A stretch of DNA of 64,000 bases from Dehalococcoidia bacterium (GTDB lineage Bacteria; Chloroflexota; Dehalococcoidia; UBA6926), in the NCBI GenBank assembly GCA_965224255.1, contig CBDCYO010000004.1:2449-66448 (forward strand), given 5' to 3'. Shown here piece by piece: positions 1 to 57,546 of the stretch. A program made the translations under genes and the position numbers. How positions within the stretch are numbered: the first letter of the stretch is position 1; each line of letters opens with the position of its first letter. The notes beneath the pieces were generated by a model. That model had not been told where the DNA came from and made no database searches. It worked only from the letters and a program-made list of their open reading frames with translations.

Positions 1-681
1 ATCAACAAACGCTCCGTTCGCGTGATAACTGCAAATGCCGAGATCGACGTGGTACCGGTCGTGGAATTAGGAATGGTGTATGAGCTTCCTGACCGGGACC
101 TTGGCCATTGGAAGCTCACAAACCCGCCGGGGCATAACGATTGGAGTAAGGATCAGAATGCGCTTTTCGATGACCGATTTAAGCCGCTGGTCAAAATGTT
201 CAAGTGGTGGCACCGCGAGAACAATACCGGCAAGAGACCGAAGGGCTTTGTCCTGGAGGTACTCGTCTCGAAACATGCACCGAACAACGAAAGCCACTAT
301 GGCGAAGCTTTCGCCCAGATGCTTGAGAGCATCTATGCGAATTATGGGCAACTTGCCGAAATAGGAATCAAGCCGTCCATCGAGGACCCAGCACTTCGGG
401 GAAATGACATTCTGTCAAAGGTATCGATGACTAATTGGAAGAACTTCATTGAGCGCGTGCGGGTTCATGCCGTCTATGCCCGGCGGGCTCAGGAAGAGGA
501 GAATATGGAGGAGGCCACCCGTCTATGGCGGAAGCTGTTCGGCAGTCGGTTTCCTGCAACTGCAAATCCCGCGAATGCAAAGAGTCTTGCAAGTTTAGCG
601 GCCGCTCCCTCTATAGCATCACAAGGCTACAACTTCCCACCTGTTGCCGCAGCACCCAAAAAACCACGGGGGTTTGCATGA
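1..681 (+). CDS. CD-NTase / SMODS-family cyclic-oligonucleotide synthase, C-terminal part (5' end outside window)
   Basis: Frame open from nt 1. DVVPVVE...WKLTNPPGH...FKPLVKMFKWW resembles the SMODS C-terminal half. Stop overlaps next start (ATGA 678-681). Followed by Cap2/Cap3/SAVED effector. Confidence 0.75.
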   Translation: MNKRSVRVITANAEIDVVPVVELGMVYELPDRDLGHWKLTNPPGHNDWSKDQNALFDDRFKPLVKMFKWWHRENNTGKRPKGFVLEVLVSKHAPNNESHYGEAFAQMLESIYANYGQLAEIGIKPSIEDPALRGNDILSKVSMTNWKNFIERVRVHAVYARRAQEEENMEEATRLWRKLFGSRFPATANPANAKSLASLAAAPSIASQGYNFPPVAAAPKKPRGFA

Positions 682-2381
682 AGTTGTGGTGGCTGACCGA
701 TTTTGCGCGTGTTGATGCCGAGAAGACAGCGGTTGAACGGCTTACCCAGGACGAAGGTTGGTTTACCCTCTGCTGCTGGCGCCTCAACGCTTGGCGTTTT
801 TCGGCTGATGGTATCATCACGGCTCACGATATTGCTTATCCCGTCCGCCTTGTTTACCCGGATCAGTTTCCGTTGGTGCCGGCCTGGGTGGAACCGCAAG
901 ACCCAGAGGCCCGCTGGAGTTCTCATCAGTATGGTAAAGGTGGCGTTCTCTGTCTTGAGCTTCGGCCGGACAATTGGTCGCCAAGTGCCTCCGGCACCGA
1001 TGTCCTTCGCAGCGCCTACAAACTTCTCTGGATGGAGAACCCGCTCGGCGACGGAGAGCACAGCCGTGTTCCTTCCGCTGATCGGATCAGCGATGTGCAG
1101 TCCTACGATTGGGGAACCGAACCGGTCTTGATCGGGTCGGGTTGTCTGGAACGACTGAGAAATGGTAAAGCCAATCATCTGCGCGCTCTGCGATGGGCAC
1201 CAACCGATGGAGGCCTTTGGCCGATTCTGGTGTTCGATGCGATAGACCTCGCCCAACCACAACACCCTCCATCCTTTGACCTTGGCACGCTCCGGGTCGA
1301 GTTGCCGGTCATCGCGGCACAAGTCGAAGCACCCAACCCAACGCCGGCAGATCGCTTGGCATTGGCATCAGCCTTAGGCATGAGTCTCGATTCAGACACA
1401 CTTAAGAGTGGCGTAATCGTGATTACTGCCGGCGTGGAGCATACCACGGCGTTCCATTCGCCAGATGAAACCTCCATCTTTACCAGAAAATTGGTGATTC
1501 TTCCCGATGAGGCAGGTATTCGCTCAGGGCGGACATCCCAAGCAGCCAGTAAGAGCGTCGCCGTGGCCGGGTTGGGTTCAGTTGGTTCCAAGGTGGCGGA
1601 AATGTTACTTCGATCTGGCGTGCATCGTCTCCTGCTGATGGATGGCGATGTGTTTTTCCCCGGCAACTTGGAGCGCCATACGCTGGATTGGCGAGATATT
1701 GGGTTTCGGAAGGCAAACGCCGTCAAGCGTCGCCTGCTTCATATCGCCCCTGGCGCAACCATCGATGTCATCACCTTCCATTTGGACTGGCAGCGGTCGG
1801 CAAGATTTCATGCCGATATCGTTGGACGATTAGCCGCTTGTGATCTCATCTTTGACGCTACGGGCGATATTCCCAGCGCTTTGCGATTCGGCGCAATTGC
1901 CGCAGAGAATGAAAGGCCGTTCGTTTCGGCGCAGGTGTTCGAAGGCGGGCTCGGTTGTCTCATTGCCCGTTCGCTGCCGGGGCTTGACCCTCCTTATGTG
2001 GCCGGTCGAGAAGCTTACGATGCCTATTGCGAAAAGATGGACGTCACACCGCCGGCTAGCGGGCACAGGGACTACGAGGCCCTGAATGAAACAGGTCAGC
2101 CCTTGGTTGCTGACGACGCGGCGGTTACGATCGCGGCTGCGCATGCGTCGCGCGTTGTGCTAGATATTTTCGACGAGCGGTTGGACTCCGCGGACGCCGG
2201 CTGGCTGCTGATGGGTTTTCGGAAAGGATGGTTGTTCGAGAGGCATGGTCATAGCATAAGCCTTGATGTTAGCGCGGTTTCAGTTCCGGCGCCGCCTGAG
2301 ACGACTGATGATGCAGGAATAAGAATTTTCATCGCCGATTTGGTCAAGGGGGCGTGTGGTGCGACTGCGTCTCCCGAGTGA
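678..2381 (+). CDS. cap2: Cap2-like E2-E1 fusion (CBASS regulator)
   Basis: 567 aa. N-terminal E2-like region with candidate catalytic Cys (GGVLCLELRPDNW). ThiF/E1 Rossmann motif VAVAGLGSVGSKVAEMLLRSGV. Confidence 0.85.
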   Translation: MKLWWLTDFARVDAEKTAVERLTQDEGWFTLCCWRLNAWRFSADGIITAHDIAYPVRLVYPDQFPLVPAWVEPQDPEARWSSHQYGKGGVLCLELRPDNWSPSASGTDVLRSAYKLLWMENPLGDGEHSRVPSADRISDVQSYDWGTEPVLIGSGCLERLRNGKANHLRALRWAPTDGGLWPILVFDAIDLAQPQHPPSFDLGTLRVELPVIAAQVEAPNPTPADRLALASALGMSLDSDTLKSGVIVITAGVEHTTAFHSPDETSIFTRKLVILPDEAGIRSGRTSQAASKSVAVAGLGSVGSKVAEMLLRSGVHRLLLMDGDVFFPGNLERHTLDWRDIGFRKANAVKRRLLHIAPGATIDVITFHLDWQRSARFHADIVGRLAACDLIFDATGDIPSALRFGAIAAENERPFVSAQVFEGGLGCLIARSLPGLDPPYVAGREAYDAYCEKMDVTPPASGHRDYEALNETGQPLVADDAAVTIAAAHASRVVLDIFDERLDSADAGWLLMGFRKGWLFERHGHSISLDVSAVSVPAPPETTDDAGIRIFIADLVKGACGATASPE

Positions 2382-2820
2382 CCAACAGGAACTGCTGTGC
2401 AGAGCGCTTCGCCGAGCCGGGAATAAAGAAATCGGTGGTCAAATCTTCGGTGAGCAACTTGCTCCTTCCGACTTCCAGGCGACCCATCTGACTTTCCAGA
2501 AAGGGCCCGGCAGGTTCGCGCGATTCATCGTTGACATTGTCCAAGCTGCACGAGACGCGCTGCGATTCTTCGACCGGACCGGGCACTGCTACACCCGCTT
2601 CAACTATATCGGCGAGTGGCACAGCCACCCGAACTTCGGCATTCGCCCGAGTGGAACGGATTTGGCCACAATGCAACATCTTGTTCTGGATCATGATTTT
2701 CAAGGTAACTTCGCCATTCTCATGCTCGCCCGCCTTGAGGGGGAGCAACTCGCCTGCAGGGCTTGGGTTTTCGATCAGACCGGGCGTGAGCAAGCCGCGA
2801 CGCTGAAGATGCAACCATGA
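2356..2820 (+). CDS. cap3: Cap3-like JAB/JAMM isopeptidase
   Basis: 154 aa. JAMM motif EWHSHPNFGIRPSGTD. GTG start overlaps the cap2 end by 26 nt. Confidence 0.85.
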   Translation: MVRLRLPSDQQELLCRALRRAGNKEIGGQIFGEQLAPSDFQATHLTFQKGPGRFARFIVDIVQAARDALRFFDRTGHCYTRFNYIGEWHSHPNFGIRPSGTDLATMQHLVLDHDFQGNFAILMLARLEGEQLACRAWVFDQTGREQAATLKMQP

Positions 2821-4286
2821 CGGTCGAGAAAAAACCGACTCTCACAGACCCAAAGGGGATGGGGGGCATAAACGCCCAAGACGGTTTCGACTATCAAGTT
2901 TGGGTTGCACTTGCGCGACTGCCCGCCTGGCTCCGCAACCCTGCATTCGAGGGTGTTGCAATTGAAACACTGGAGGACTTCGAGGCCCGATTCTTCGCAC
3001 CGCATTCGCCTCGCGGTCATGTCCTAGACCGTTTTCAAGCTAAGTCCGGAACACCTACTCAGGCTGAGATCATCGAAGTCCTGGATTCCTTTTGGGCATT
3101 CGATGCTGCCTATCCGGCGACCGCACGGGTTCATACCCTCGTTACCCCTGCACTTCCAACCGGTTTAAGGTGGATCGCTCGTGACGTTAACCGAGTCCAG
3201 AACGCTCGGCCATTCTACCAGCCGTTTTCTGACATCCGTGCCGCCAGCGACGACGAGTTGAAAAAGAAGCTCGTCAAGAAATTCGGTCCTGACCGCGGCG
3301 TATTCTTTGCTAGGTCAGTCGAGGTGGCACTGCAAACCATACCAGACCGGAACCACGCAGAAATAACCTTTGCTGCTGCCATGGGCAAAGCCTTTCCTGG
3401 AATGGGAGCTAATGCTCCAGATATATTCAGCGCCTTCCGGGCATTAAGCGATCTTGTCGCTCAGTTTCGAGGTGGGATGCTTACCAGAGACCAACTAGTT
3501 GCGCTTCTTAACGAGACGCTTGGAATTGAATTAGAAGCGGAACGGAGCTTGCACGTCCATATCCGGTCGGACCGAAACAGCGCTCGGTCTGACGCAGTCG
3601 AGGTCGATGCCAGCCACTTTTCCGGTACAGGCGGGGGTTTCCCGACACCTGAAAAATGGGATGCCGAGTTCATAACGCCACTTAATGCGGTCGCTCGCTG
3701 GGCGGGGCGTCGTAATCATCGACGGGTCGCGTTATCGGGCTCCTATCGCCTGACCACAGCTTTTGTCGTTGGCTGGACGTTTCGTTCTGCTAAGGGTTTT
3801 GACCTGGATGTCGAGACAAGGGCGGGAATGTGGGCTACAGATGCTTATCCCTCCCCAGACATAGTTTTGCCTTGGGAGATCAACGGACCTTTGGGTCTCG
3901 TTGATGAAAGGCTAGTTGTGGGTGTGGGCATTCTGCGAAATCCAACGCTCAACATGGTTCAAGACCTTGGATTGCAGAACAGCACCAGCTTTCTTATAGC
4001 CACCTTGGAGAAACCTTTGAGAAACGGCATGGAAGCTCAGGCCTCAGCCGCAGCTATAAAGAATGCGATGGCCAATGCAGTAGAACGATTCCGTCCAACT
4101 GGTATCGACTTGTACTACGCTGGGCCTGCTGCTTTCGCTGTCACGCTAGGACACCGCTGGAATGCTTTGCCGCCAACGCAGTTACGGGAGTTTATAGCCG
4201 CTGGGCAGTACTACTCACCGACCGCTCAAATCGAACAATCGAGCAGCAGGGACATAAACCGGCACGGAAACGCCAACTGGTTGTGA
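2817..4286 (+). CDS. cap4: CBASS effector: DUF4297-type nuclease fused to SAVED sensor (Cap4-like)
   Basis: 489 aa. N-terminus GGINAQDGFDYQ...ETLEDFE...FQAKSG fits the PD-(D/E)xK-like DUF4297 domain. C-terminal half is SAVED-like. ATGA overlap with cap3. Confidence 0.75.
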   Translation: MTVEKKPTLTDPKGMGGINAQDGFDYQVWVALARLPAWLRNPAFEGVAIETLEDFEARFFAPHSPRGHVLDRFQAKSGTPTQAEIIEVLDSFWAFDAAYPATARVHTLVTPALPTGLRWIARDVNRVQNARPFYQPFSDIRAASDDELKKKLVKKFGPDRGVFFARSVEVALQTIPDRNHAEITFAAAMGKAFPGMGANAPDIFSAFRALSDLVAQFRGGMLTRDQLVALLNETLGIELEAERSLHVHIRSDRNSARSDAVEVDASHFSGTGGGFPTPEKWDAEFITPLNAVARWAGRRNHRRVALSGSYRLTTAFVVGWTFRSAKGFDLDVETRAGMWATDAYPSPDIVLPWEINGPLGLVDERLVVGVGILRNPTLNMVQDLGLQNSTSFLIATLEKPLRNGMEAQASAAAIKNAMANAVERFRPTGIDLYYAGPAAFAVTLGHRWNALPPTQLREFIAAGQYYSPTAQIEQSSSRDINRHGNANWL

Positions 4287-4507: not shown

Positions 4508-4730
4508 CCGTTTTTCTGCCAGAAGGAGCCTGTGCGGCTCGGAGGGAGGCGACTGATCAAGCGGCACCAGGCGGACACCGGCGTCATTCTCAACAAGGTG
4601 AGCCCGTCTCAACTAATGTGCGCTCATTCTCAGATAATGTGAGCCCAGAGGCCGTTTCGTTCTCAAATAATCTGAGCCGAAAACGGCGATGTTCTCAAGC
4701 ACAACGCCGGATGTTCTCAAGTCGCTACAG
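4508..4730. repeat. Extra copy of the right end of the TniA/TniB transposon
   Basis: About 225 bp near-identical to 14811-15035. Six ~20-bp subterminal repeats containing TTCTCA. Ends ...GTCGCTACAG at 4730. Interior side faces CBASS. Confidence 0.8.
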
Positions 4731-5123
4731 GTACTTGCGCCCGTCATGGGTGCGGTCCTCGACGAAGTCATAGCTCCACACATGGTTTGCATGCTCGGCC
4801 CGCAGGCGCATGCACGAGCCGTCGGCAAGCCACAGACGCCGACGTTTCGGTTGCTTGGCAGGCACCTTGAGCCCCGCACGCCGCCAGATGCGCTCTACCC
4901 GCTTGTCGTTGACCACCCAGCCGCCCTGCGTGCGCAGCAACTCGGCAATCTTGCGATAGCCGTAGCGGCCACAGGACCGGGCCAGGGTAATGATGTCCTC
5001 GGTCAATTCGGCCTCATCATGGAGCCCCTGCGGGCGGCTTGCGCTGCGTCGAGCGGTGCTGTCCGAGTGCTCGGCAGGCACGGCGCTCCGAGATGCCCAG
5101 TTTATCTCGGATCTGCTCGACAC
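4731..5123 (-). pseudogene. IS3-family OrfB, N-terminal fragment truncated at 4731
   Basis: GRYGYRKIAELLR...NHVWSYDFVEDRTHDGRKY is an HTH plus the start of an rve domain. No DDE core follows. Abuts the transposon end. Confidence 0.7.
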
Positions 5124-5343: not shown

Positions 5344-5363
5344 GGCCTTTGAGTAGCAATGGA

Positions 5364-6240
5364 GTAGAGTCGGCAACTGGCGCGGTAGCGGTAGGCGGAT
5401 GGGGGTAGCTGTTCCCGGCGGCTTTCGCAATGCCGGTGCCTCACTCCTCGCCGTGGCTCCGTTTCCAGTCACCGCTCTCCAAACTGAGCGGGCGGATTTC
5501 CCGCACTCAGCTCTCCAGTGGGATCATGCGTCTCGCACACGGAACACCTTGGCAACCGCGCACAGCAGATGATCTTGCGAAAGCGGCACGACTTCCGCCC
5601 TGCGGCGCGCGGCGCTTTCAGTGGACCGCCGAGCCTGTTGACGCCTCGACGACCCCGCGCCTTGAGAGGGCACGGTTCCTTCACTTGGGCATGTGATGCT
5701 GCCGGGTTTTCTGGTCATCAATCGGGGTAATAGGCATGGCCACTCCCGTGACCCTTCTCCCTTTGGGCATCGCTCCTCACCTGAGGCCTCTTCCCTCCGC
5801 CGGCATTACCCGGCATCCCCGGTACTTCAGGCCTCTCCGCCACCCTGCCGGCCCAACCTGACCCTCGCGGGCTGTCGGTTGGCGCGTGCCACGCCACCGG
5901 ACAGGGCTTCCCGTGTTGCGTCCATTCCCCTCTTCCATGCGTGCTGCCGCCATTACCCCGGCGGAACCTGTCGGTGCGTGCGTCGCTCGCTTCCCGACCG
6001 GTGCCAGCCTTCCCCGTTTCTGTGGCGGGTCGGCTTCCGCATTACACGTTTCGAGGCCTGCTCAGCGTTTACTCACGTTGCGGCCCGCATGGTCGCTAAG
6101 CCGCCCTTGGCGGCCCGTTACATCGGAGTGCTTCAGACGATGTCGTTACCTCCATCATCCGCTCCGACTGCTACCGGCTGGAGCGACAGTTGCCGGGCGG
6201 GATTCGCACCCGCTAGGGAATGGCGCCTTACACGGCGCAC
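5364..6240 (-). ncRNA. ORF-less group II intron, copy 1
   Basis: Reverse complement is identical to 10076-10952, checked at both ends. Domain V lies at 5481-5513. Confidence 0.75.
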
Positions 6241-6308
6241 ACAGAAAACTGTGTTAAGCCTTGCTGAGTTGCCGGCCGTCGTCTTTCGGTGAGCCAGTGT
6301 CGTCGGCG

Positions 6309-6926
6309 TCATTGAGTTCGGGGCATGAGATGGCGAGAGCGCATGAAATGATAGAGCGTCGAGCGGTCTACTCCGGTGATCTTGGCAATCGACGCCTTTG
6401 AGACCTTGAGGTCCAGGAGCCTTTGAATTTCGTCTTCCTTGCCATTGAGCCTTGACTGTCCCAGTCGTCCCTTCGGACGCCCCAAGCGTTTGCCCGAAGC
6501 CCGTGCCGCCGCCAGTCCTTCCTTGGTTCGCATGGAAATGAGTTCGCGCTCGATTTCCGCAAACAAGCCGAACAACGTCACCATGACCTTGCTGTGCAAA
6601 TCCTGCTTGCCCGCCAGACGAATGCCTTCCTTGATCGCCAGAAACCGGACCTGTTGCTTCAGCAAGGCATCCACCGTGGTAATCACCTCGCCTACCGAGC
6701 GGCCCATGCGGCTCAACTCACTGACAACGAGGGTGTCGCCCGGCTCCAGCTGCGCCATCAGGAGGTCGATCTGTCGTTCTTTGGGCGAGCGCCTCGACGA
6801 CACGCTGAGTTCCATGAAGGCGCTGACCTCGAACTTTTCCTGGCGGGCAAACTCCAGGATCGCCAGGCGTTGATTTCCGACATCCTGTGAGTCCTTCGAG
6901 ACGCGTAAATAGGCGATCGTCTTCAT
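6309..6926 (-). CDS. tnpR: Serine recombinase / resolvase
   Basis: 205 aa. MKTIAYLRVSKDSQD catalytic-Ser N-terminus, C-terminal HTH. Divergent from tnpA. Confidence 0.85.
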   Translation of the reverse strand: MKTIAYLRVSKDSQDVGNQRLAILEFARQEKFEVSAFMELSVSSRRSPKERQIDLLMAQLEPGDTLVVSELSRMGRSVGEVITTVDALLKQQVRFLAIKEGIRLAGKQDLHSKVMVTLFGLFAEIERELISMRTKEGLAAARASGKRLGRPKGRLGQSRLNGKEDEIQRLLDLKVSKASIAKITGVDRSTLYHFMRSRHLMPRTQ

Positions 6927-7060
6927 GGCGCGGCCATCCTGTGGAAGCTATCCTTTATTTGGGCCTGTTTCCTACGGTATGGATGGAGTAATCCTGAGCC
7001 TTTCCTTTCAGCATATCCGTTGGCAAGAAACGCTCGTTTCACTCCACGGCAGGGGACGGT

Positions 7061-10052
7061 ATGCCGGTCGAGTTCCTGAGTCAAGACCAGCACCGCCGCT
7101 ATGGGCGCTATGCCGATCATCCGTCGCCCCGTCAACTCGCTCGCTATTTCCATTTGGACGACCGAGACCGCCAGGTGATCGCGCGACACCGCGGCGACCA
7201 CAACCGTCTGGGATTTGCCGTTCAACTCGGCACGGTCCGGTTTCTGGGCACCTTCCTTCCTGATCCCGCCGCGGTTCCTGCCCATGTGGTCAGTCATGCC
7301 GCTCATCAGCTCGACATCCAGGACCCGACTTGCTTCGCTCGCTACGACAGGCCACAAACGCATTGGGACCATACCGTAGAGATCAAACAGACCTATGGCT
7401 ACCGCGATTTCCACGATCCAACCGAGGTGTTCCGCCTGCTGCGCTGGCTCTACACCCGGGCCTGGCTGAGTGCCGAGCGACCCAGCGTCCTCTTCGACCA
7501 CGCCACCGCTCGTCTCGTCGAGCACAAGGTGCTGCTTCCCGGCGTAACCGTGATGGAACGACTCGTGGCGCGTGTCCGAGAGCGAGCCGCCGCACGGCTT
7601 TGGCGTCTGCTCGCGCAGGTCCCTGGCGACATCCACAAGGCAAAACTGGAGGCGCTCTTGCAGGCGCCGCCCGAGGTCCGTTCAAGCCCCCTGGATCAGC
7701 TTCGACGGGCGCCTGTACGTGTGAGTGGACCCGCTTTGGTTGAGGCGCTGCAACGCCTCGAGGCCATGAGAGCCCTTGGCGTCGGAGACCTTCCTTTGGA
7801 TCACATCCCGCCGAGCCGTCTGCGCGCTTTGGCCCGCCATGGCGCTGCTGCGCGAGCTCAGGCCATCGCCCGCATGGCCCCGGAACGTCGAGTTGCCACC
7901 CTGCTGGCCTTTGCGCGAGCCTTCGAGGTTATCGCGATGGATGACGCCATCGACCTCCTCGACTTCCTGATCAGCCAGCTCATCCACGAGGCCCGTAACG
8001 AGGGCGAAAAACAGCGGCTGCGGACCTTGCGCGACCTGGATGCTGCGGCGCTGCAACTCTGGAATGCGATGGGCGTCCTTTTGGACGAAACCGTCGCTGC
8101 CACTGCGGTTCGCACCCAGACCTATGCCCGCATTCCCCGGCAGTGTCTGCTTGAAGCCGGTGCTCAGGTTGAAACGTTGGCCCGGCCCGCAGATGACCGC
8201 TATTACCCAGAGTTGGTTGACCGTTATCGTCGGGTGCGGCGGTTCTTGCCCGCCCTGTTGCGCAGCGTGTCGTTTGAGAGCACGCAAGCCGGCAAGGCGA
8301 TGCTTGACGCCCTGGATTTTCTGCGTCGCATCGAACCCCAACGCCACCCTGACATGCAGCAGGCGCCGCTGGACGTGGTGCCAGGTGCCTGGCGGCGTCT
8401 TGTGAAGCCCGCCTGCACGCCCACGGTGGATCGGCAAGCGTACACGATCTGCATTGTCGAACGGCTACAAGACCATCTGAGGCGGCGAGATATCTTTGTC
8501 TCCAGGAGCGAGCGCTGGGGGGATCCGCGTATCAAGTTGCTGCAGGGCGAGCAGTGGGAGGGGATGCGACCCATGGTCTGCCGGGCTTTGGGCCGCAACG
8601 AATCGCCGGAGCCGGAACTCCACGCCCTCGGCCAGCAACTCGATGCCGCCTATCAACACACCGCAGCCCGGTTTTCAACGAATGAGGCGGTGCGTGTGGA
8701 AACCGTGAAGGGCCGTGACACCCTGATCCTCAGCAGGCTCGAAGAACCGCCCCGTTTCAGCGCTCTGCGCGACCGCGTGCTGAATCTGTTGCCACGCGTC
8801 GATTTGCCGGAGCTGCTGTTGGAAATCCATGCGCGAACGGGCTTCGCCAATGAATGTACCCACATCAGTGAAGGCGAAGCGAGGGTGGCGGAGTTGCCTG
8901 TAAGTATCTGTGCGGTCCTGCTGGCGGAAGCCTGCAACATCGGCCTCGAACCCGTCGTGCGCTCCGATCATCCGGCCCTGACGCGAGCGCGACTGAGCTG
9001 GGTCCAACAAAACTATATCCGCACCGAGACGCTGACGCGGGCCAATGCCTGCCTGGTTGACGCCCAGTCCACCATCGACCTGGCGCAGGTGTGGGGTGGC
9101 GGTGACGTGGCGTCTGCCGATGGCCTGCGCTTCGTGGTGCCTGTGCGCACCCTCAATGCCGGCCCCAACCGCAAATACTTCAACGCCGATCGGGGGGTGA
9201 CGTATTACAATTTCACCTCGGACCAATTCACCGGTTTCCATGCCATCGTCATCCCCGGCACCCTGCGCGACTCCATGTATATCCTCGATGGCCTCCTCGA
9301 CCACCAAACGCGGCTGCAACCGGGAGAAGTCATGGCCGACACGGCCCGGTGTGAGTGCGGTTGTTTTCGGGTTGTTCTGGCTACTGGGTTACCAGTTCAG
9401 CCCACGTATGGCCGACCTGGGCAAAGCCAGGTTCTGGCGCCTCGACCCCGCGGCAGACTACGGCGTCCTCAATGGCATCGCCCGGGCTCGTGCCAATACA
9501 AGGCTCATCAGCCGCAATTGGGACGACTTGTTACGGGTTGCCGGGTCTCTGCATCAGGGCACGGTGAGTGCCTCCGAACTCATGCGGTCACTGCTCAGAA
9601 GCAAGCGTCCCACCACGCTGTCGCGCGCCCTCGCGGCCTTGGGACGTATCCCGAAAACCCTTTACATGTTGGCCTACGTAGATGATGAGCACTATCGACG
9701 GCGCATCCTGACGCAGCTCAACCGCGGCGAAAGCCGCCATAGCGTTGCACGTGCGGTTTTTCATGGCCAGCGTGGCGAACTCCGGCAGCGTTACCGCGAA
9801 GGCCAAGAGGACCAACTCGGAGCATTGGGGCTGGTCGTCAATGCCATCGTGCTGTGGAATACCCTCTACATGGCAGCGGCTCTCAAAGAGTTGTCTCACG
9901 TCGGCTATGGGGTCCATCCGGAAGACGTGGCGCGACTGTCGCCCTTGATCCACAGACACCTCAATTTTCAGGGACGACACGCCTTTGTACTGCCGGAGGC
10001 CGTGGCGCAAGGCCAATTACGACCCCTGCGTGACCCTCGCCAAGAGCAGTAG
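7061..10052 (+). pseudogene. tnpA: Tn3-family transposase with a +1 frameshift near 9345-9347
   Basis: MPVEFLSQDQHRRYGRY... N-terminus. Frame switches at ADTA|GVSAVVFGLFWLLGYQF (ORFs 7061-9685 and 9240-10052). An extra C in gcccggt causes the shift. Confidence 0.85.
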
Positions 10053-10075
10053 CAAGGCTTAACACAGTTTTCTGT

Positions 10076-10952
10076 GTGCGCCGTGTAAGGCGCCATTCCC
10101 TAGCGGGTGCGAATCCCGCCCGGCAACTGTCGCTCCAGCCGGTAGCAGTCGGAGCGGATGATGGAGGTAACGACATCGTCTGAAGCACTCCGATGTAACG
10201 GGCCGCCAAGGGCGGCTTAGCGACCATGCGGGCCGCAACGTGAGTAAACGCTGAGCAGGCCTCGAAACGTGTAATGCGGAAGCCGACCCGCCACAGAAAC
10301 GGGGAAGGCTGGCACCGGTCGGGAAGCGAGCGACGCACGCACCGACAGGTTCCGCCGGGGTAATGGCGGCAGCACGCATGGAAGAGGGGAATGGACGCAA
10401 CACGGGAAGCCCTGTCCGGTGGCGTGGCACGCGCCAACCGACAGCCCGCGAGGGTCAGGTTGGGCCGGCAGGGTGGCGGAGAGGCCTGAAGTACCGGGGA
10501 TGCCGGGTAATGCCGGCGGAGGGAAGAGGCCTCAGGTGAGGAGCGATGCCCAAAGGGAGAAGGGTCACGGGAGTGGCCATGCCTATTACCCCGATTGATG
10601 ACCAGAAAACCCGGCAGCATCACATGCCCAAGTGAAGGAACCGTGCCCTCTCAAGGCGCGGGGTCGTCGAGGCGTCAACAGGCTCGGCGGTCCACTGAAA
10701 GCGCCGCGCGCCGCAGGGCGGAAGTCGTGCCGCTTTCGCAAGATCATCTGCTGTGCGCGGTTGCCAAGGTGTTCCGTGTGCGAGACGCATGATCCCACTG
10801 GAGAGCTGAGTGCGGGAAATCCGCCCGCTCAGTTTGGAGAGCGGTGACTGGAAACGGAGCCACGGCGAGGAGTGAGGCACCGGCATTGCGAAAGCCGCCG
10901 GGAACAGCTACCCCCATCCGCCTACCGCTACCGCGCCAGTTGCCGACTCTAC
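10076..10952 (+). ncRNA. ORF-less group II intron, copy 2
   Basis: 5' GTGCG. Domain V 10803-10835 (GAGCUGAGUGCGGGAAAUCCGCCCGCUCAGUUU) has the AGC triad, a GAAA-type loop and a 2-nt bulge. D6 helix is 10838-10851 paired with 10936-10950, bulged A at 10946, 3' end ..CUAC. ACAGAAA at 10293-10299 complements the exon TTTCTGT. Confidence 0.8.
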
Positions 10953-10972
10953 TCCATTGCTACTCAAAGGCC

Positions 10973-11060: not shown

Positions 11061-11251
11061 GGATGTTTCCTGTCAGGCAATCAGCGGTCGGAGCCGAAAT
11101 CATGCCTCAAGCGTCGTCAGTCTATTCTGCCGTGAAATCCTGGCGGCCGCGATGCCGTGTCTACGACATCCGCCCTGTCGCTTTCAACACCAACCAGAGC
11201 AGGGAAAACATCCGACTGAACAGGTAGTCCTTCTCCCCGCCGTCGCCTACC

Positions 11252-11416
11252 TGTAGCGACTTGAGAACATCCGGCGTCGAGCTTGAGAACATCGCCGTTT
11301 TCGGCTCAGATTATTTGAGAACGAAACGGCCTCTGGGCTCACATTATCTGAGAATGAGCGCACATTATCTGAGACGGGCTCACCTTGTTGAGAATGACGC
11401 CGAAGTCGTGAGAACC
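11252..11416. repeat. Transposon left end with about 7 subterminal TGAGAA-type repeats
   Basis: Repeats start near 11262, 11283, 11313, 11346, 11366, 11387 and 11407. They are inverted relative to the right end. Confidence 0.75.
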
Positions 11417-11427
11417 GACGACGGGCG

Positions 11428-12402
11428 TCACAACGCCAGCCCGACAGCGCGCATCCGGTCGGCAAGCTCCCGCGTGCGGCCGGCGTCGAGTTGGCCGCTG
11501 AGAAAACGGCGGATCTCGCTGGGCTTGGCATGGAACTGATCCGCCAGCACCTTGGGTGAATAGCCCTGGCGAGTCAGCCGCGGTTCAAGGTCGTCGAAGT
11601 CGGGCGCCAGCGTCGTGGCGATGATCTCCGCCGTGACGGGTTTCTGGCCGGTGCGGAAGCCGGCCTCGAAGGCGCGGTCAAGGTGCTCGGCAAACTGCAG
11701 CGGTGTGGCCAGCCTGATGGCCATCAGGTCCAGGGCCGCGGGCTCGATCAGGGCATCAACGTCGGTATCCGCCTCGGTGCACTCGCCGAGCAGCCAGTCC
11801 AGGTAGGCGCGGGCGTCCTCTCCGAGGCCCTCGAAGGACAGGATGTCGGTGCGGTGGCCGATCTCTTCCATGGTCGGACGGCGCAGGTCGTTGCGCAGCT
11901 TCGGATGGCCGATGAGCACCACGGACAGACTACCGCCGCCTCGGGCGATGACCTCCATCAGCCGCTTGAGACCGTTCAGGGTTCTGCTGTGCAGGTCGTG
12001 GGCTTCATCGATGAACAGCGCCACCGGCTTGCCGCCGCGCAGCACGAGCTTTCGCAGCTCGCGTTCGCGCTTTTCGCCCTGGGTGGGAATCTTCAGATCC
12101 TTTTCGGGTGACAAGTCGTAGAACAGGGCGGCGATCAGGGTCGGCACGGTGGTCCGGTTGGTGTCGACCGACAGGCTTTCGGCCACTACCACCTTCTTCT
12201 CGCTGGCGATCTCGTCCTGCAGGCGATGCAGGAAGACGGTCTTGCCGACGCCGATCGGACCGGTGATGGCGATCAGCCGACCAGAGCCGAGTCCGGCGCG
12301 CACCGCCCGCCCGATCTGGCGGTGGTTCTCGGTCTCATAGAATCCGGCGCTGCGCCAGTCCTTTGCCAGCGCGTATCGCGCCATGATTTCGGCGTTCAGC
12401 AT
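11428..12402 (-). CDS. tniB: TniB/ExeA-like AAA+ ATPase (transposition helper)
   Basis: 324 aa. Walker A ITGPIGVGKT, Walker B LFIDEAHD. Overlaps the tniA end. Confidence 0.8.
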   Translation of the reverse strand: MLNAEIMARYALAKDWRSAGFYETENHRQIGRAVRAGLGSGRLIAITGPIGVGKTVFLHRLQDEIASEKKVVVAESLSVDTNRTTVPTLIAALFYDLSPEKDLKIPTQGEKRERELRKLVLRGGKPVALFIDEAHDLHSRTLNGLKRLMEVIARGGGSLSVVLIGHPKLRNDLRRPTMEEIGHRTDILSFEGLGEDARAYLDWLLGECTEADTDVDALIEPAALDLMAIRLATPLQFAEHLDRAFEAGFRTGQKPVTAEIIATTLAPDFDDLEPRLTRQGYSPKVLADQFHAKPSEIRRFLSGQLDAGRTRELADRMRAVGLAL

Positions 12403-14066
12403 TGCGCGCTCTCCTTGTTTGCGGCAGGCCGCTTCGGCAAGAATCGCTCAAGGACGGCTTGCTCGATGACGGCCTTGTCGAGGGTGCGCTCCACGAGCGC
12501 GTTGATGAAGGCGAGGTCGTCATCGGCCAGGCGCGTCAGGGGCCGATGCAGCAGATCGGAGACACCGCGCAGCGCATCGAGACGACCGCCGTAGGTGAAC
12601 TGGCCATAGGGGTCGGGATCGACAAAGGGCTGGCGGCGCAGCGGCAACACGTCGGCGGCACGCGCCAAGCTGTCGTCCACTCCGCTCAGGGCCGCCCGCG
12701 GCACCGACAACTTGCGGGCCAGGTCGCCGATGCGGTCGGCACGCTGCTGGGTTGCCGACGTGCGGGGCTTGCGGTAGCGGTGCAGCGGGATGGGGCCGCC
12801 GCTCGGCCGGTAGGGGCCGAAACGCCGCTCCCGGAACTCGACGAACAGCTCGTGGTCGAACAGTCCCCACCAGACCGTGACGGTCTCGCCCGCCAAGTCG
12901 GCGTCGACGTCGTAGAAAGCGCCATCCATCCGGATGCGGGCGTCACCCGCTACGCGGCGGCGCTCGGGTTCGCGCGCAAAGGCGCAGAAGCGTTCCCAGG
13001 AACACATCTGCCGCAGACCCTCACTAGGCAGGTTACGCGCCCAGTCCTCGATGCGGCTATGCGGCTCTCTGCGGTGCGGCTGCGCGTTGTAGCGGTCGAT
13101 ATAGCGTGAAAGCCAGGCATTCGCCTCAGCTTCGGTCTCGGGCTTGTGGAAGTGATAGAGCGTCTCGTGCGCCTCCTTCACCGTGCGAAAGGGGCGCTCC
13201 ACCTTGCCCTTGGCGCGTGCGGTGGGACGGCGGCCATCGCGACCGGCCGGGACATGCGTCATGACGCGCACGCCGAGACGCTCCATGACGGTGTTGAAGA
13301 CGCCGCTTTTGGCGATCGGGCCGTTGTCGAGATACAGCGCCTCCGGGATGCCTTGCAGGGCGTGGTCCGCATCCTTTTTTGGCGCCATGGCATTGAACAG
13401 GAAGCGCAGGCCGCTCTCGACGTCCTCGCCGTAGACGCAGCGGTACTCCTGGTAGGCGGCGCCGCTGCGGTCATCGACGACAGAGAAGAGCATCGGCACC
13501 GGCAGGCCCTTGCGGTCGGGGTCGATCCAGGTGGGCTGTTCGATCACCTTGAGGTCCGATGGGCTGATGTCGAACTGCCACAGGGCGTTGGCGGTGCGGG
13601 CCTCGAAGCGCACGGCCGCCGGCGCCCGGGTCATGCGGGCGTGGTCGTAGCCCCAAAGCTGCAGGTAGCGGTTCACGGTCGCCCTGTGCAGCAGGCCGCC
13701 GGGCGCCTGCACCAAGCCCTGGGGTGTCTCGACCCCGTGTGTCTCGAGGAGTTCGATGCAACGCGAAGTCGACAGACGCCGGCCCTTGAGATTGGAGGTG
13801 CGCAGTTTCAAGGCGGCGACGAGCTCGCAGTAGCGCTCGAGCTCCCGGCGGGATATCTTGCGCGGCTCGCCGCGGTCGGCGCGCCGCAGGCCCCGCGGCT
13901 GGAGTTGCCCTGCCAGCGCCCGGTAGAGCGTCGCGCGCGACACCCCGAAGAGGCCCGCAGCGCTCTCCACGAGTGCCCGCCTTGTCGCATGGCGTGGCGG
14001 CAACTGATCGCGCCGCCGTCGCAGGTCGAGCAGCGCCTCGGCAGGAATACCGCCGTCCTGGCTCAT
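12396..14066 (-). CDS. tniA: TniA/TnsB-like DDE (rve) transposase
   Basis: 556 aa. N-terminal HTH. WQFDISPSD...DNGPIAKSG...GKVERPFRTVKE is a DDE triad pattern. Confidence 0.8.
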   Translation of the reverse strand: MSQDGGIPAEALLDLRRRRDQLPPRHATRRALVESAAGLFGVSRATLYRALAGQLQPRGLRRADRGEPRKISRRELERYCELVAALKLRTSNLKGRRLSTSRCIELLETHGVETPQGLVQAPGGLLHRATVNRYLQLWGYDHARMTRAPAAVRFEARTANALWQFDISPSDLKVIEQPTWIDPDRKGLPVPMLFSVVDDRSGAAYQEYRCVYGEDVESGLRFLFNAMAPKKDADHALQGIPEALYLDNGPIAKSGVFNTVMERLGVRVMTHVPAGRDGRRPTARAKGKVERPFRTVKEAHETLYHFHKPETEAEANAWLSRYIDRYNAQPHRREPHSRIEDWARNLPSEGLRQMCSWERFCAFAREPERRRVAGDARIRMDGAFYDVDADLAGETVTVWWGLFDHELFVEFRERRFGPYRPSGGPIPLHRYRKPRTSATQQRADRIGDLARKLSVPRAALSGVDDSLARAADVLPLRRQPFVDPDPYGQFTYGGRLDALRGVSDLLHRPLTRLADDDLAFINALVERTLDKAVIEQAVLERFLPKRPAANKESAQC

Positions 14067-14686
14067 GCGTCCTGGGCCGCGTCGAGCAGCTTCTGGCCCG
14101 GTTCCTTTACCGTGCCGTCGCCGTTGACGTACATGTACAGGGTCGTCGTGGTGATGCCGAGGCGCTGCGCCAGGCCGTGCGCATTGGTGTCACGATCCGC
14201 CATGGCGCGCATCGCCATGCGCAACAGGGCCACGTCCATCTTGCGCGGTCGGCCGCCCAGGCGGCCCCTTGCCCGGGCTGCCGCCAGGCCGGCGCGGGTG
14301 CGTTCGGCAATCAGTTCACGCTCGAACTCGGCCAGCGACGCGAAGATGCCAAAGACCAGGCGCCCGTTGGCCGTCGTGGTGTCGATTTCGGCGCCGGCAC
14401 CAGCGAGTACGCGCAGGCCGATGCCGCGGGCATGCAGCTCGTCCACGGTGGTCACCAGATGTTTCAGATCACGGCCCAGGCGGTCGAGTTTCCAGACGAC
14501 GAAGATGTTGCCCGGCTGCAAGGCTTTCAGACAAGCCTCCAGGCCCGGGCGGTGATCCCGGCGCCCCGAGGCGCGGTCCTCGTAGATGCGCTCCTCGACC
14601 ACGCCGGCGCCGATCAGGGCGTCGCGCTGCAGGTCGAGGAGTTGACTGCCGTCCGCCTTTGAGACGCGCGCATAGCCAATCAGCAT
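14063..14686 (-). CDS. tniR: Serine resolvase
   Basis: 207 aa. MLIGYARVSKADGSQLLDLQRDAL. C-terminal HTH. Confidence 0.85.
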   Translation of the reverse strand: MLIGYARVSKADGSQLLDLQRDALIGAGVVEERIYEDRASGRRDHRPGLEACLKALQPGNIFVVWKLDRLGRDLKHLVTTVDELHARGIGLRVLAGAGAEIDTTTANGRLVFGIFASLAEFERELIAERTRAGLAAARARGRLGGRPRKMDVALLRMAMRAMADRDTNAHGLAQRLGITTTTLYMYVNGDGTVKEPGQKLLDAAQDA

Positions 14687-14810: not shown

Positions 14811-15035
14811 TCCGTTTTCCTGCCAGAAGGAGCCTGTGCGGCTCGGAGGGAGACAACAGATCAAGCGGCACCAGGTGGACACCCGGCGTCATTCTCAACA
14901 AGGTGAGCCCGTCTCAACTAATGTGCGCTCATTCTCAGATAATGTGAGCCGAGAGGCCGTTTCGTTCTCAAATAATCTGAGCCCAAATCGGCGATGTTCT
15001 CAAGCACAACGCCGGATGTTCTCAAGTCGCTACAG
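14811..15035. repeat. Transposon right end (six TTCTCA-type subterminal repeats)
   Basis: Inverted relative to 11252-11416. Near-identical to 4508-4730. Confidence 0.8.
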
Positions 15036-15040
15036 CTACC

Positions 15041-15120
15041 TGGCGCTGCCCGATGTCGCTGCAAAAAGACCCGCGTAAACGCCTTAGCGCAACTTTTCGT
15101 TCCAATGATTGTCACGGCCC
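15041..15120. repeat. Orphan end of the 27592-35244 Tn3-family element (last tnpR codons + 38-bp IR)
   Basis: Encodes ..LALPDVAAKRPA* followed by CTTAGCGCAACTTTTCGTTCCAATGATTGTCACGGCCC at 15083-15120. Matches the reverse complement of 27592-27675. Confidence 0.8.
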
Positions 15121-15134
15121 ATGACCAAGAACAA

Positions 15135-22425: not shown

Positions 22426-22944
22426 TCAGTTCCGGAATGGCAACACGTACTTTTCCCAGTACTCACGCGCAACTTCCTGCGCACGGGCACGTCCTTCGCG
22501 AGCCATGGACGTAGCGATGATCTTCTTGTTCTCCCGAGCGTTCTTGTCGCCTTGAGCGGCGGCGACATCAAACCAGGCCCAGGCCTGCACGTCGTCCTGG
22601 GGTACACCTCGGCCGGTGGCGAACAAGACACCGAGGTTGCACTGTGCCAGGACATGCCCTCCTTCGGCAGCCTTGCGGAACCACTTCAGGGCCTCATCGT
22701 CGTCTTGCGGCTGACCTTGGCCAGTGGCGTGCATGACACCGCGGTTGTACTGTGCCTCGGGGGTCTTGGGGTTCATGAGAGCCGCGTCCCATCCCGACCA
22801 GGTCCATCCATACATGGCAAGGGGCCGCGATTCCGCAAGGGTACCGTCTTGCGCCTCGGCAACTGTCTCAGAACCTGGGGCGAAACCAACGACAAGGACC
22901 AGCGCGCCCAACGCCAGTCCGTACAAGCGTCGATACCACCTCAA
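22426..22944 (-). CDS. Sel1-like repeat protein (secreted)
   Basis: 172 aa. EAQYNRGVMHATGQG..ALKWFRKAAEGGHVLAQCNLG repeats. Confidence 0.8.
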   Translation of the reverse strand: MRWYRRLYGLALGALVLVVGFAPGSETVAEAQDGTLAESRPLAMYGWTWSGWDAALMNPKTPEAQYNRGVMHATGQGQPQDDDEALKWFRKAAEGGHVLAQCNLGVLFATGRGVPQDDVQAWAWFDVAAAQGDKNARENKKIIATSMAREGRARAQEVAREYWEKYVLPFRN

Positions 22945-23136
22945 GGGTCACCCCGCTTTCCAATTTGCGTCCAGATAAAAAAGCCCCTCCGGGATACTTC
23001 CCCGGAAAGGCTTCAGCAACTTCGCATAACCCCATGTCATGTCACCGCCGAACAGCCGGTGTGGATGAATTGTGGAAGGCAACATAAAGGCTTTCCAGCA
23101 TTCTCGCACAAGCTCCCGTACGTGGTCACTCTCGGT

Positions 23137-24072
23137 TTAGGAGTCCGCTTTGTCCCTGATCCGAAGAAAGTCTGCTCCCAGGACAGGCTGAATCGAAAAG
23201 GTTCTGTCTCGATGGGTGAGCCTCCGCAGATAGATATTGGTGCTGAGCTCTTGGGCGCGAGCAATTTGCTCAGTGGTCATGCGTTCCCTAAGTTCAGCCA
23301 TTTCTCTCGTGGTGGCATGACTCAGGTTTAACCAAGCGTAGGCCTGCACGTCGTCCTGCGGTACACCTTGGCCATCCCTGAACATGATTCCCAGACGCTC
23401 TTGCGTTTCGAGATAACCCTGTTCAGCGGCCTTGCAATACCACTTGACCGCCTCAACATCGTCTTCCGGTACGCCCTTGCCGAAGTCATACAGGTCGCCC
23501 AGGAGGTGTTGCGCCTCGGCGTAATCCTGTTCAGCAGCCCTGCGGAAGCACTTTATCGCCTCGGCATAGTCTTGTGGTACCCCCTTGCCGCGGAGGTGCA
23601 TCATGCCCAGGACGGTTTGTGCCAAGGCGTTGTCCTGCTCGGCAGCCTTGCGGTACCACTTCACGGCTTCGACATCGTTCTGCGGTACGCCCCTGCCAAG
23701 CTCATACATGGCACTCAGACTGCACTGCGCCCAGTCGTGACCTTGCTCGGCGGCCAAAAGATACCACTTCACCGCCTCGGCATAATCTTGCGGTACACTT
23801 TTTGGATCACCGAAACCTCTACTGAATTGGTCGTTACCATTCTCGAACATGCGGCCCAGGCGGTGTTGTGCCTCAGCGTTACCCTGCTCTGCGGCCTTTC
23901 GGTACCACTTCGCAGCTTCGACATAGTCCTGGAGCACACCTTTGCCACGGTAGTGCATGACACCCAAAACGGTTTGCGCCTCAGTGTTGCCTTTTTTGGC
24001 AAGACGCAACAATTCGGTAACCCATTCATTCCGCCACAAGTAAAGAACCAACCGTGCGATCATTCGGAACAT
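23137..24072 (-). CDS. Sel1-like repeat protein
   Basis: 311 aa. At least 6 repeats of the form AxxWYRKAAEQGxAEAQ. Confidence 0.8.
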   Translation of the reverse strand: MFRMIARLVLYLWRNEWVTELLRLAKKGNTEAQTVLGVMHYRGKGVLQDYVEAAKWYRKAAEQGNAEAQHRLGRMFENGNDQFSRGFGDPKSVPQDYAEAVKWYLLAAEQGHDWAQCSLSAMYELGRGVPQNDVEAVKWYRKAAEQDNALAQTVLGMMHLRGKGVPQDYAEAIKCFRRAAEQDYAEAQHLLGDLYDFGKGVPEDDVEAVKWYCKAAEQGYLETQERLGIMFRDGQGVPQDDVQAYAWLNLSHATTREMAELRERMTTEQIARAQELSTNIYLRRLTHRDRTFSIQPVLGADFLRIRDKADS

Positions 24073-27591: not shown

Positions 27592-27629
27592 GGGTCGTGA
27601 CAATCATTGGAACGAAAAGTTGCGCTAAG
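27592..27629. repeat. Left 38-bp IR of the Tn3-family element
   Basis: Resembles the classic Tn3 IR (GGGG...GGAACGAAAA...TAAG). Confidence 0.9.
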
Positions 27630-27633
27630 GCGT

Positions 27634-30882: not shown

Positions 30883-30949
30883 GGCCCAGTTACAACATAG
30901 CTGCTCTGAAGTGCCAAATTGACGCCGCGCCTCTGACCTCGTCCGTGTC

Positions 30950-31641: not shown

Positions 31642-34605
<2,964 letters not shown>

Positions 34606-34701
34606 CCGTCTCTGCCTCCAAAAAGGGGTTCAGAATCGAGTCGGATGAACTATAGCGAAGACCAATTTGGCACTTTAGAGCAGCTATGTTGTAACTGGGC
34701 C

Positions 34702-35211
34702 TCCCTGAAGCTCGGTACCGTGCAGGCCTCGGAACTGGTACGCTCTTTTCTGAGAAGCGAACGGCCCTCCAGCCTGGCAAGCGCGATCATGGAACTGGGA
34801 CGCATCAACAAGACCATCTACCTGCTCAACTATATCGACGACGCGGCCTATCGTCGGCGTATCCTCACACAGATCAATCGCGGCGAAGGCCGCCATCGGG
34901 TGATCCGGGCCATCTGCTACGGCAAGCGCGGCGAAATCCGAAAGCCTTATCGCCAAGGTCAGGAAGACCAACTCAGCGCGCTCGGCCTGGTCACCAATGC
35001 GGTCGTGCTCTGGAACACGATCTACATGGAAGCCGCCCTGAATCATCTGAGGGCCCAGGGCATCAAGATCCGACCGGCGGACTTGGCGCGACTCTCACCC
35101 CTGATACACAAGCACATCCATGTGCTCGGACGCTATGCCTTCACACTCCCCGAACCGATTGCCAACGGCGCCTTGCGTCCCCTCAATCAGGAAGAACTCG
35201 ACGACCCTTAG
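34702..35211 (+). pseudogene. tnpA: Tn3-family transposase, C-terminal part
   Basis: SLKLGTVQASELVRSFL... continues ...RVAGS from 30880. The TAG stop lies inside the right IR. Confidence 0.9.
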
Positions 35212-35244
35212 CGCAACTTTTCGTTCCAATGATTGTCACGGCCC
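35207..35244. repeat. Right 38-bp IR of the Tn3-family element
   Basis: CTTAGCGCAACTTTTCGTTCCAATGATTGTCACGGCCC. Confidence 0.9.
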
Positions 35245-35264
35245 AGATAGAGGCCCGTACAGAG

Positions 35265-56566: not shown

Positions 56567-56654
56567 TTTGAGTCAAGCAGGTTTGGAAACGTGGGTGATG
56601 ATGTCGTTGAGGATGACGGTAGCGATCTGGCTCATGTGGCGAACTTTCGTTGGT

Positions 56655-57215: not shown

Positions 57216-57546
57216 GCACCCGGCGGTAGCTGATGATGCGGAACGTGAAGGCTCTAGAGAGGCGCCTTTTTGCTGGCGAAAGTGTCTGTGAAGCCAGCCG
57301 CCGTAGGCTTGGTGGCGGATGTGGTTGATTTCGGGGATGGTTTCGGGAGGGGATTTTGGTTTGGAACGGGTCGGTGTGTGAAACATGCCTTATGTTGGCC
57401 ACGAGCGGAGCGGTGTTCTTGGCGCTGCGTAAGCGAAGTGAGTGGCCAAAAGCGAACAGGAATGGGACTCTGTCCCTTCTGTTCCTCCTGTTCGCCTCTG
57501 TTCGGGTGATTTTCGATCAGTGATAAAAAGGGTTTCCGGCCGTCGT

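Follow-up and report, generated by a model that had tools for sequence, protein, structure and literature searches.

A group II intron without an open reading frame splits both terminal inverted repeats of a Tn3-family transposon

The 38-bp terminal inverted repeats (IRs) of Tn21-family transposons serve as targets for IS4321 and IS5075, insertion sequences of the IS1111 family; the published interpretation (PMC8269217, citing Partridge & Hall 2003, PMC219399) is that the repeat offers them a safe harbour which the transposon carries along. Group II introns are also known from the sequences of other mobile elements. RmInt1 of Sinorhizobium meliloti, an endonuclease-less intron of class IIB, homes into ISRm2011-2, and E.c.I2-type introns home into IS3-family transposase genes (PMC4238363, PMC3522654); for both, the presence of the intron has been proposed to control the spread of the host element (PMC4075523, PMC4238363, PMC3522654). 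Recognition of the RmInt1 type relies on the exon-binding sites EBS1, EBS2 and EBS3 together with a few distal positions that are read by the protein, for example T-15 (PMC4075523). A further lineage, the class C-attC introns, is specialised on the attC recombination sites of integrons (PMC4424553). Here we analyze a stretch of 64,000 nt, referred to below as the window, from a Dehalococcoidia bacterium (GCA_965224255.1, contig CBDCYO010000004.1, forward strand, positions 2,449-66,448). It contains a Tn3-family transposon in which both terminal IRs are split at the same position by a group II intron that lacks an open reading frame (ORF). The initial annotation of this DNA knew of no described intron that homes to a Tn3-family IR, and our search of the full-text literature, which included a survey of Enterobacteriales introns, likewise found no published group II intron in such a repeat, although an older mention is possible.

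The window locus resembles the IS4321/IS5075 case in that a 38-bp Tn3/Tn21-family IR is the specific, orientation-fixed target of a second mobile element. However, IS4321 and IS5075 are DNA transposons with their own transposase, whereas the invader in the window is an ORF-less catalytic RNA, which would be targeted by RNA-DNA pairing through EBS1 and EBS2 and would need a reverse transcriptase (RT) supplied in trans. The likeness is confined to the choice of target: the insert matches group II intron RNA models and not an IS, and it does not show the characteristics of an IS1111-type element, namely a DEDD transposase of its own and subterminal IRs, although protein families were not searched with the ORFs over the insert, which lack similarity to RTs. 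With RmInt1 and the E.c.I2-type introns it shares the situation of an endonuclease-less or site-specific intron whose natural homing site lies within another mobile element. In those cases, however, the site is transposase coding sequence, in which splicing can restore function, whereas the site in the window is a cis-acting DNA end, in which it cannot; the window intron is, in addition, ORF-less and present at both ends. The class C-attC introns also target a recombination site of another mobile system, but IIC introns recognize a DNA stem-loop and a short intron-binding site (IBS) 1 and have no EBS2, whereas the window intron is IIB-like, with both EBS1 and EBS2 and a long domain VI. The window case is set apart by an RNA-guided ORF-less retroelement, a cis-acting end as its target, and the occupancy of both ends.

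A repeat search delimited a perfect inverted repeat with arms at 5344-6265 and 10051-10972, each of 922 nt, 100% complementary and separated by 3785 nt. Read on the plus strand, the right arm consists of 7 nt (agcaagg), the inner 18 bp of the tnpA-side IR (CTTAACACAGTTTTCTGT, 10058-10075), which form the 5′ exon, the 877-nt intron itself (GTGCG...CTCTAC, 10076-10952), and the outer 20 bp of the IR (TCCATTGCTACTCAAAGGCC, 10953-10972), which form the 3′ exon. The left arm is its exact mirror. On the minus strand, the inner 18 bp of the tnpR-side IR (6241-6258) constitute the 5′ exon with IBS2 and IBS1, followed by an 877-nt intron that is 100% identical to the right copy (6240-5364, with its 5′ end at 6240) and by the outer 20 bp of the IR as 3′ exon (5344-5363; GGCCTTTGAGTAGCAATGGA on the plus strand). 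Between the arms lie two divergent genes. The first, tnpR (6309-6926, minus strand), encodes a serine resolvase of 205 aa (Pfam Resolvase, E=6e-33) and reads outward to the left IR and its intron; the second, tnpA (7061-10052, plus strand), encodes a Tn3-family transposase with the Pfam domains DUF4158 and DDE_Tnp_Tn3 and is divided in the window into two ORFs (7061-9685 and 9240-10052). The 134-bp intergenic region between them (6927-7060) presumably holds the res site and the promoters, as judged from Tn3-type gene order. Membership in the Tn3 family is indicated by a TnpA of ~1000 aa with both domains, a resolvase divergent from tnpA, and IRs of ~38 bp with an inner ...TAAG. The initial annotation had given the coordinates and lengths of the arms and the sequences that flank the introns around tnpR-tnpA correctly throughout.

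That the insert is a group II intron is indicated by several structural features. At the Rfam gathering thresholds (49 bits for RF02003 and 40 bits for RF00029), the model RF02003 (group-II-D1D4-4) matches both arms with 91.9 bits, at 10101-10243 on the plus strand and 6215-6073 on the minus strand, and RF00029 (Intron_gpII, covering domains V and VI) matches both with 44.6 bits, at 10801-10952 (plus) and 5515-5364 (minus). The boundary motifs, GUGCG at the 5′ end (10076-10080) and ...CUAC at the 3′ end (10949-10952), fit the GUGYG/AY pattern, and the empty sites described below define them with single-base precision. A domain V hairpin with an AGC triad and a 2-nt bulge was located at 10803-10835 (plus strand) by the RF00029 alignment and by minimum free energy and centroid folds, and the same kinds of fold give a long domain VI of ~113 nt at 10838-10950 (plus strand; z=-2.9). 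In a fold of the last 158 nt, a bulged branch-point A is found at 10946, 7 nt before the 3′ splice site. ORFs of at least 50 aa that overlap the intron have no similarity to intron-encoded proteins (IEPs), and tblastn detected no RT gene anywhere in the 64-kb window. Full-length introns of ~1.98 kb, from metagenome-assembled genomes (MAGs) of Vicinamibacterales and other soil MAGs, are 87-90% identical to nt 1-458 of the window intron and 80-85% identical to nt 697-877; they carry an ORF of 446-471 aa with RT and maturase, and a 238-nt segment of the window intron stands in for their ORF region of ~1.35 kb. The insert is an ORF-less derivative of a group II intron. The initial annotation had called it an ORF-less group II intron from the sequence, and this identification holds: it passes the covariance-model check, with domain I and domain V/VI matches in both arms, and the bulged A is present.

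We then considered other copies of the transposon, which were found through the exact TnpR protein (eight ENA metagenome contigs) and through the TnpA cluster (103 member sequences, yielding further contigs). The whole transposon had no near-identical match among PLSDB plasmids, where a distant search returned only ~70-73% identity, to the 5′ half of the intron. Intron-free copies of the transposon, 96.6-98.5% identical to that of the window, are present at L004, L008, L136, L141/L142, L143 and L144. Both ends of these copies are uninterrupted and read CTTAACACAGTTTTCTGTTCCATTGCTACTCAAAGGCC, which is exactly the sequence of the joined exons; L145 also carries an uninterrupted CTTAACACAGTTTTCTGTTCCATTGCTACTCAAAGGCC, at its single readable end. 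The intron-free copies thus show the rebuilt IR, GGCCTTTGAGTAGCAATGGAACAGAAAACTGTGTTAAG, as one unbroken sequence at either end, with the inner ...TAAG in place. In three of them a 5-bp target-site duplication (TSD) follows directly after ...GGCC (GACAG in L004, TATGC in L143 and GTCTT in L144). Because the TSDs abut ...GGCC, the IR is 38 bp long and, in numbering from its outer tip, the intron separates nt 20 from nt 21. The inner 18 nt recur in four JGI metagenome contigs, joined there to a canonical ...CCCC outer end, and each of these IRs is intact. Since the empty sites are identical to the joined exons, the element is a precise insertion into a Tn3-family IR and not a native long terminal repeat. 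The initial annotation had rebuilt an IR of ~38 bp from flanks of 18 and ~20 nt and had suggested a search for intron-free copies; these exist, and their intact IRs, some of them bordered by TSDs, match the rebuilt 18+20 nt exactly. The IR elsewhere in the window with which it had compared the rebuilt sequence also exists, uninterrupted, at 35206-35245.

The intron contains two loops that account for the choice of this site. EBS1 (ACAGAAA, 10293-10299, plus strand) lies in a hairpin loop and is complementary at 7/7 positions to IBS1 (TTTCTGT, -7 to -1), with which the 5′ exon ends, and the EBS2 core (GUGU, 10269-10272, plus strand) forms 4/4 pairs with IBS2 (ACAC, -14 to -11). Relatives of the intron (at least 120) were collected from reference genomes with a pattern derived from its 5′ end and blind to the exons, and covariation was evaluated against 1000 exon shuffles in the 24 relatives, among the matches listed, in which both loops were located automatically. 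The cognate exons formed a mean of 6.0 of 7 pairs with EBS1, against 3.07 for shuffled exons (maximum 4.29), and 3.4 of 4 pairs with EBS2, against 2.43 (maximum 2.83). As both values lie above all 1000 shuffles, the loops are real exon-binding sites. Three other Tn3-type IRs in the window (15082-15121, 27592-27630 and 35206-35245), with the inner half CTTAGCGCAACTTTTCGT, are uninterrupted; they mismatch both EBS sites and stay unoccupied. The family also prefers T-16/A-15/A-14, with TA at -16/-15 in 15/31 relatives among the matches listed, and T-16/A-15 forms part of the inner ...TAAG that is conserved in Tn3-family IRs. The precedent of T-15 in RmInt1 (PMC4075523) makes it probable that these two positions are read by the intron protein. 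To the initial annotation the intron appeared to home into the IR at both ends with its 5′ end inward; the perfect EBS1 and EBS2 matches, the orientation of both copies and the existence of copies with zero, one and two introns all agree with this.

Occupied sites were found in several states. L009 carries the intron at its tnpR-side end only, and its tnpA-side IR is intact. L005, a transposon variant of 97.2% identity on a contig of 97.5 kb (labelled as circular, 122x), has introns at both ends that are 99.9% identical to those of the window; the IRs of this variant are not those of the window, nor are its two inner halves alike (ACACAG vs ACACGG). L006 holds an intron variant of 93.7% identity at the same site and with the same EBS loops, and L007 represents the locus of the window in another sample, with 99.8% identity and an equal two-intron structure. 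Across distinct flanks, 7 IR ends are occupied and 14 are empty. This pattern fits an intron that is mobile, or recently was, and for which this IR is the homing site. The coexistence of empty, singly occupied and doubly occupied sites indirectly suggests both splicing and retromobility, and the comparison of copies supports the view that the two ends of the transposon would have been invaded independently and repeatedly.

One further copy is broken. At L143:5053-9138, and in the same form in L146, an IR-borne intron with the variant IR ACACGG retains nt 1-173 and 761-877; the ~3.8 kb between the pieces holds two group II introns of RF02005 type, and an intact, TSD-flanked copy of the transposon lies 17 nt beyond the IR of the broken intron. 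A gene with RVT_1 and GIIM domains beside the transposon copy (L137/L143) was considered as part of a full-length IR-borne intron and rejected, as it belongs to the two nested, unrelated RF02005-type introns. The two RTs next to the L143 copy, of 499 and 436 aa, are ~33% identical to the IEPs of the intron family.

The comparison of copies also bears on the state of tnpA. In the window this gene is frameshifted by one extra C (CC to CCC, at ~9345), as the initial annotation had noted. In an alignment with L007, L004, L005 and L009, the extra C is missing from the same locus in the other assembly (L007) and from every other copy, and the ORF is intact, with 996-999 aa, in all four; a 9-nt in-frame deletion after 8733 is common to the window and L007. 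The frameshift is either a private mutation or an assembly error, and it does not stand as a general trait of intron-bearing copies, since L005 and L007 are intact. The window copy has no 5-bp TSD (its flanks are CAACG and GAAAC) and is therefore no simple insertion. We examined whether its flanks represent a single interrupted IS3-like orfA and rejected this, as the reading frames fail to join.

Taken as a whole, these observations are best explained by retrohoming into the 38-bp IR of an intron that derives, with loss of its ORF, from a family of endonuclease-less group II introns, a reading that we consider highly probable. We propose that target recognition by the intron RNA involves the inner half of the IR, on the strand that runs from inner to outer. 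Since the IRs repeat one sequence in inverted form, the identical target would be available at either end in opposite orientation, and both ends would have been invaded with the intron's 5′ end inward. As neither the intron nor the 64-kb window encodes an RT or maturase, mobilisation would take place in trans, plausibly through a protein encoded by a full-length relative of the intron that shares its host cell. Close homologues of such IEPs form more than 7,700 clusters at 90% identity, mostly from ENA metagenomes, and two IEPs of more distant relatives, at the plasmid loci L002 and L003, consist of RVT_1 and GIIM (maturase) without an endonuclease domain. Endonuclease-less introns are thought to prime from replication-fork strands (PMC4424553, PMC8914252), and the same is assumed here for the window intron.

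The position of the introns within the transposon suggests how they might be expressed. Each points in the direction of the neighbouring gene, which reads outward: on the left this is tnpR, and on the right tnpA, whose stop codon is 5 nt from the IR. In addition, no terminator-like hairpin was found between the ends of tnpR and tnpA and the introns. Since each intron is located downstream of an outward gene and in the same orientation, read-through transcription is probable, and expression from the transposon's own promoters is likely. The intron RNA would then be spliced out of the 3′ untranslated region, and the predicted ligated-exon junction in tnpA or tnpR read-through transcripts is …TTTTCTGT joined to TCCATTGC….

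Splicing of this kind would mend the RNA only, and the IR would remain split in the DNA, 20 bp from 18 bp, by 877 bp. According to the literature on Tn3 reviewed by Nicolas et al. 2015, the transposase reportedly binds to the inner two thirds of the IR, and the outer tip is said to be needed for cleavage. A split between nt 20 and 21 falls within the transposase-bound part, so that both end and immunity function should be inactivated; if the Tn3 picture applies here, a split IR end is probably dead for transposition, as the initial annotation had expected, as well as for immunity. The intron, for its part, would gain a safe harbour that is non-coding, multi-copy and plasmid-borne.

Several observations weigh against retrohoming as set out above. 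A helper IEP was not located on any contig that carries this transposon. Endonuclease-less introns usually favour the lagging-strand template, and the two window introns, which are oppositely oriented within 5 kb, are at odds with such a preference. TSDs are present in 3/6 intron-free copies and in 0/3 intron-bearing copies, numbers that are too few to judge mobility, and the tnpA ORF is intact in the intron-bearing L005 and L007, so that decay of the transposon after invasion is not evident. Finally, the two arms in the window are 100% identical over 922 nt, including the 7 nt internal to the IR, which for the window copy itself would be expected if there had been a single insertion and the second intron had then arisen from it by gene conversion or recombination, involving either the two ends or separate transposon copies. 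The several copies without a TSD point to frequent recombination between copies in the population. However, L009 is occupied at one end only, and the diverged variant L005 has the intron at both ends although its IRs are unlike (ACACAG vs ACACGG) and have therefore not been homogenised. The EBS/IBS match is, moreover, perfect at both ends, such that two homing events need no added assumption, and we regard a single insertion with subsequent copying as improbable.

Another possibility is that the 922-bp arms act as functional long terminal repeats, the transposon, as a new composite element, still moving with its introns on ends that consist of intron and half-IRs. Intron-bearing copies occur in at least three contexts (window/L007, L005 and L009-L011), and the intact tnpA of L005 and L007 would suit a transposon that is still mobile. 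Yet the 5-bp TSDs are confined to the three intron-free copies named above, and an intron of 99.9% identity within a transposon that has diverged by 3% argues for movement of the intron and not for co-transposition; in addition, transposase binding in Tn3 reportedly needs the inner IR to be contiguous with the outer part at which cleavage occurs. We therefore hold this explanation to be very unlikely. Least credible of all is an assembly artefact, in which a collapsed or mis-joined repeat would give the appearance of an intron at both ends. The related contigs are metagenome assemblies, some with coverage as low as 4-7x, and the single-base indel in the window tnpA is missing from other assemblies. 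But the same architecture was assembled independently in L007 (ERZ25069191) and in L005 (ERZ25072854, 122x, circular), the junctions are base-precise and agree with the empty sites, and the coexistence of copies with zero, one and two introns also argues against an artefact. Retrohoming into the IR remains the explanation that we prefer.

The same position has been taken by more distant members of the intron family. Introns with ~72% identity in domains I-III interrupt other Tn3-family IRs at a distance of 18 nt from the inner end. In the Buttiauxella plasmid pBTX_57 an IEP-encoding (ltrA) intron lies in an IR between the exons CTTAACGTAGGATAATTT and CGTTTTCCAAGCGGCCCCC, and a Xenorhabdus plasmid carries an IEP-encoding relative at the same IR position; in Pantoea stewartii pDSJ07 only the same 5′ junction was found, with no ltrA annotated. 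In an Enterobacterales MAG (L030), 7/7 and 4/4 pairs are formed with the inner half of a Tn21-like IR, although the 3′ end of that intron was not found, and in a Lichenicola MAG (L094) a 451-nt intron fragment is flanked such that the rebuilt sequence, GGGGTCCCGTCAGAAAACGG followed by ACCAGATCGTACGTTAGG, adjoins a C-terminal remnant of tnpA. Matches to the Buttiauxella IR, once rebuilt, occur in 4,490 plasmid records. In Vibrio an intact copy terminates a Tn3 family transposase gene; a Yersinia plasmid also has an intact copy, ~1.3 kb from a gene of this type, and next to it carries interior sequence in common with the Buttiauxella locus. Most family members among the matches listed sit at unrelated sites. 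Homing to the IR, to judge from the sites that these introns occupy, is a recurrent target choice within the family and not a property of all its members.

A common target for the whole family was also considered and rejected: among the matches listed, the 5′-exon logo is nearly flat overall, and where the sites of relatives look similar their upstream regions are unrelated beyond ~17 nt. One 5′ exon, resembling CTAGCCYG.ATTATTC, is common to L090, L124, L071, L120, L099, L032 and L036, with different 3′ exons and otherwise unrelated upstream sequence; it has the appearance of dispersal to sites set by only ~17 nt of the 5′ exon.

The absence of an ORF is also shared within the family. The closest ORF-less relatives among the matches listed are 88% identical to the window intron over nt 1-518 and ~79% identical overall, and they lie at sites that are unrelated and fit the EBS loops of the intron concerned. 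ORF-less introns thus make up an established sub-family with the ability to retarget. ORF-less bacterial introns, for example those of cyanobacterial families, coexist with IEP-encoding relatives and have been described as rare (PMC4424553). In contrast to this described rarity, roughly half of the members of the present family for which both ends were found are ORF-less, with lengths of 720-960 nt (L012-L131, among the matches listed). Many of the ORF-less members come from MAGs of Vicinamibacterales, Bryobacterales and Acidobacteriaceae, and the 8-kb blocks in which sequences were sampled may favour short copies. Class F (IIF) introns are described as having a ribozyme of 450-700 nt without the IEP, a long domain VI stem and an endonuclease-less IEP of lineage F (PMC3753933, PMC4424553). 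The window intron and its family resemble class F by this published description only, in a ribozyme of ~640 nt, a domain VI of ~113 nt, and IEPs that contain RVT_1 and GIIM alone.

More broadly, and with considerable reserve, we suggest that homing between positions 20 and 21 of the IR might be a recurrent, lineage-level niche of one endonuclease-less family, possibly class F, which would make use of ...TAAG and would range from soil plasmids of uncultured bacteria to the plasmids of Enterobacterales. Such a family would be hyperparasitic, in that it would use the promoters and copy number of the transposon and disable the ends of the latter. It is more speculative still that invasion is coupled to replication forks at the transposon ends; a Tn3-family transposase and an endonuclease-less IEP have both been reported to bind the beta-clamp (PMC11417375).

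The transposon is itself embedded in other mobile and defence-related sequences. A transposon end of ~160 nt with short internal repeats is present in three copies (4574-4733, 11248-11407 and 14884-15038). Two of these bracket genes for an AAA-ATPase, a Mu/TniA-like transposase and a resolvase (11428-14686, minus strand), an arrangement that resembles a Tn5053/Tn402-like tni module. Two such ends face each other across ~0.9 kb, within which the Tn3-like element lies. At 525-4286 there are genes resembling a cyclic oligonucleotide-based antiphage signalling system (CBASS), comprising a ThiF/E1-like protein, a small overlapping ORF and an effector with SAVED and Cap4-nuclease parts; at L007 the same CBASS-like operon also includes a SMODS cyclase and a JAB protein. 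The region around the further Tn3-family IRs is a mosaic of nested transposons, with an uninterrupted nested IR pair at 30883-30921 and 34663-34701 and two further tnpA-like ORFs (28385-30922 and 31642-34605). Repeats of other kinds are found at 22571-23980, where a 108-nt periodic repeat lies inside ORFs, and at 55837-56569, where an array resembling clustered regularly interspaced short palindromic repeats (CRISPR) has the repeat GGTTTATCCCCGCGCGTGCGGGGGAAT at 61/56-nt spacing, with 5-6 good copies followed by degenerate ones. At 57520-57629, just upstream of an ORF of 421 aa (57664-58929), 4-5 tandem 22-nt repeats could be plasmid iterons.

Homing of an intron to the cis-acting end of a transposon would add a new niche to those known for group II introns, beyond the transposase genes of insertion sequences and attC sites. 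The apparent richness of this intron family in ORF-less members among soil bacteria runs counter to the described rarity of bacterial introns of this kind. The natural alleles with zero, one and two introns, together with the EBS/IBS rules, make the effects of a split IR and mobilisation in trans directly testable. If the proposed consequences hold, the intron would be a natural, sequence-programmed brake on Tn3-family transposons, among which are major carriers of resistance and catabolic genes.

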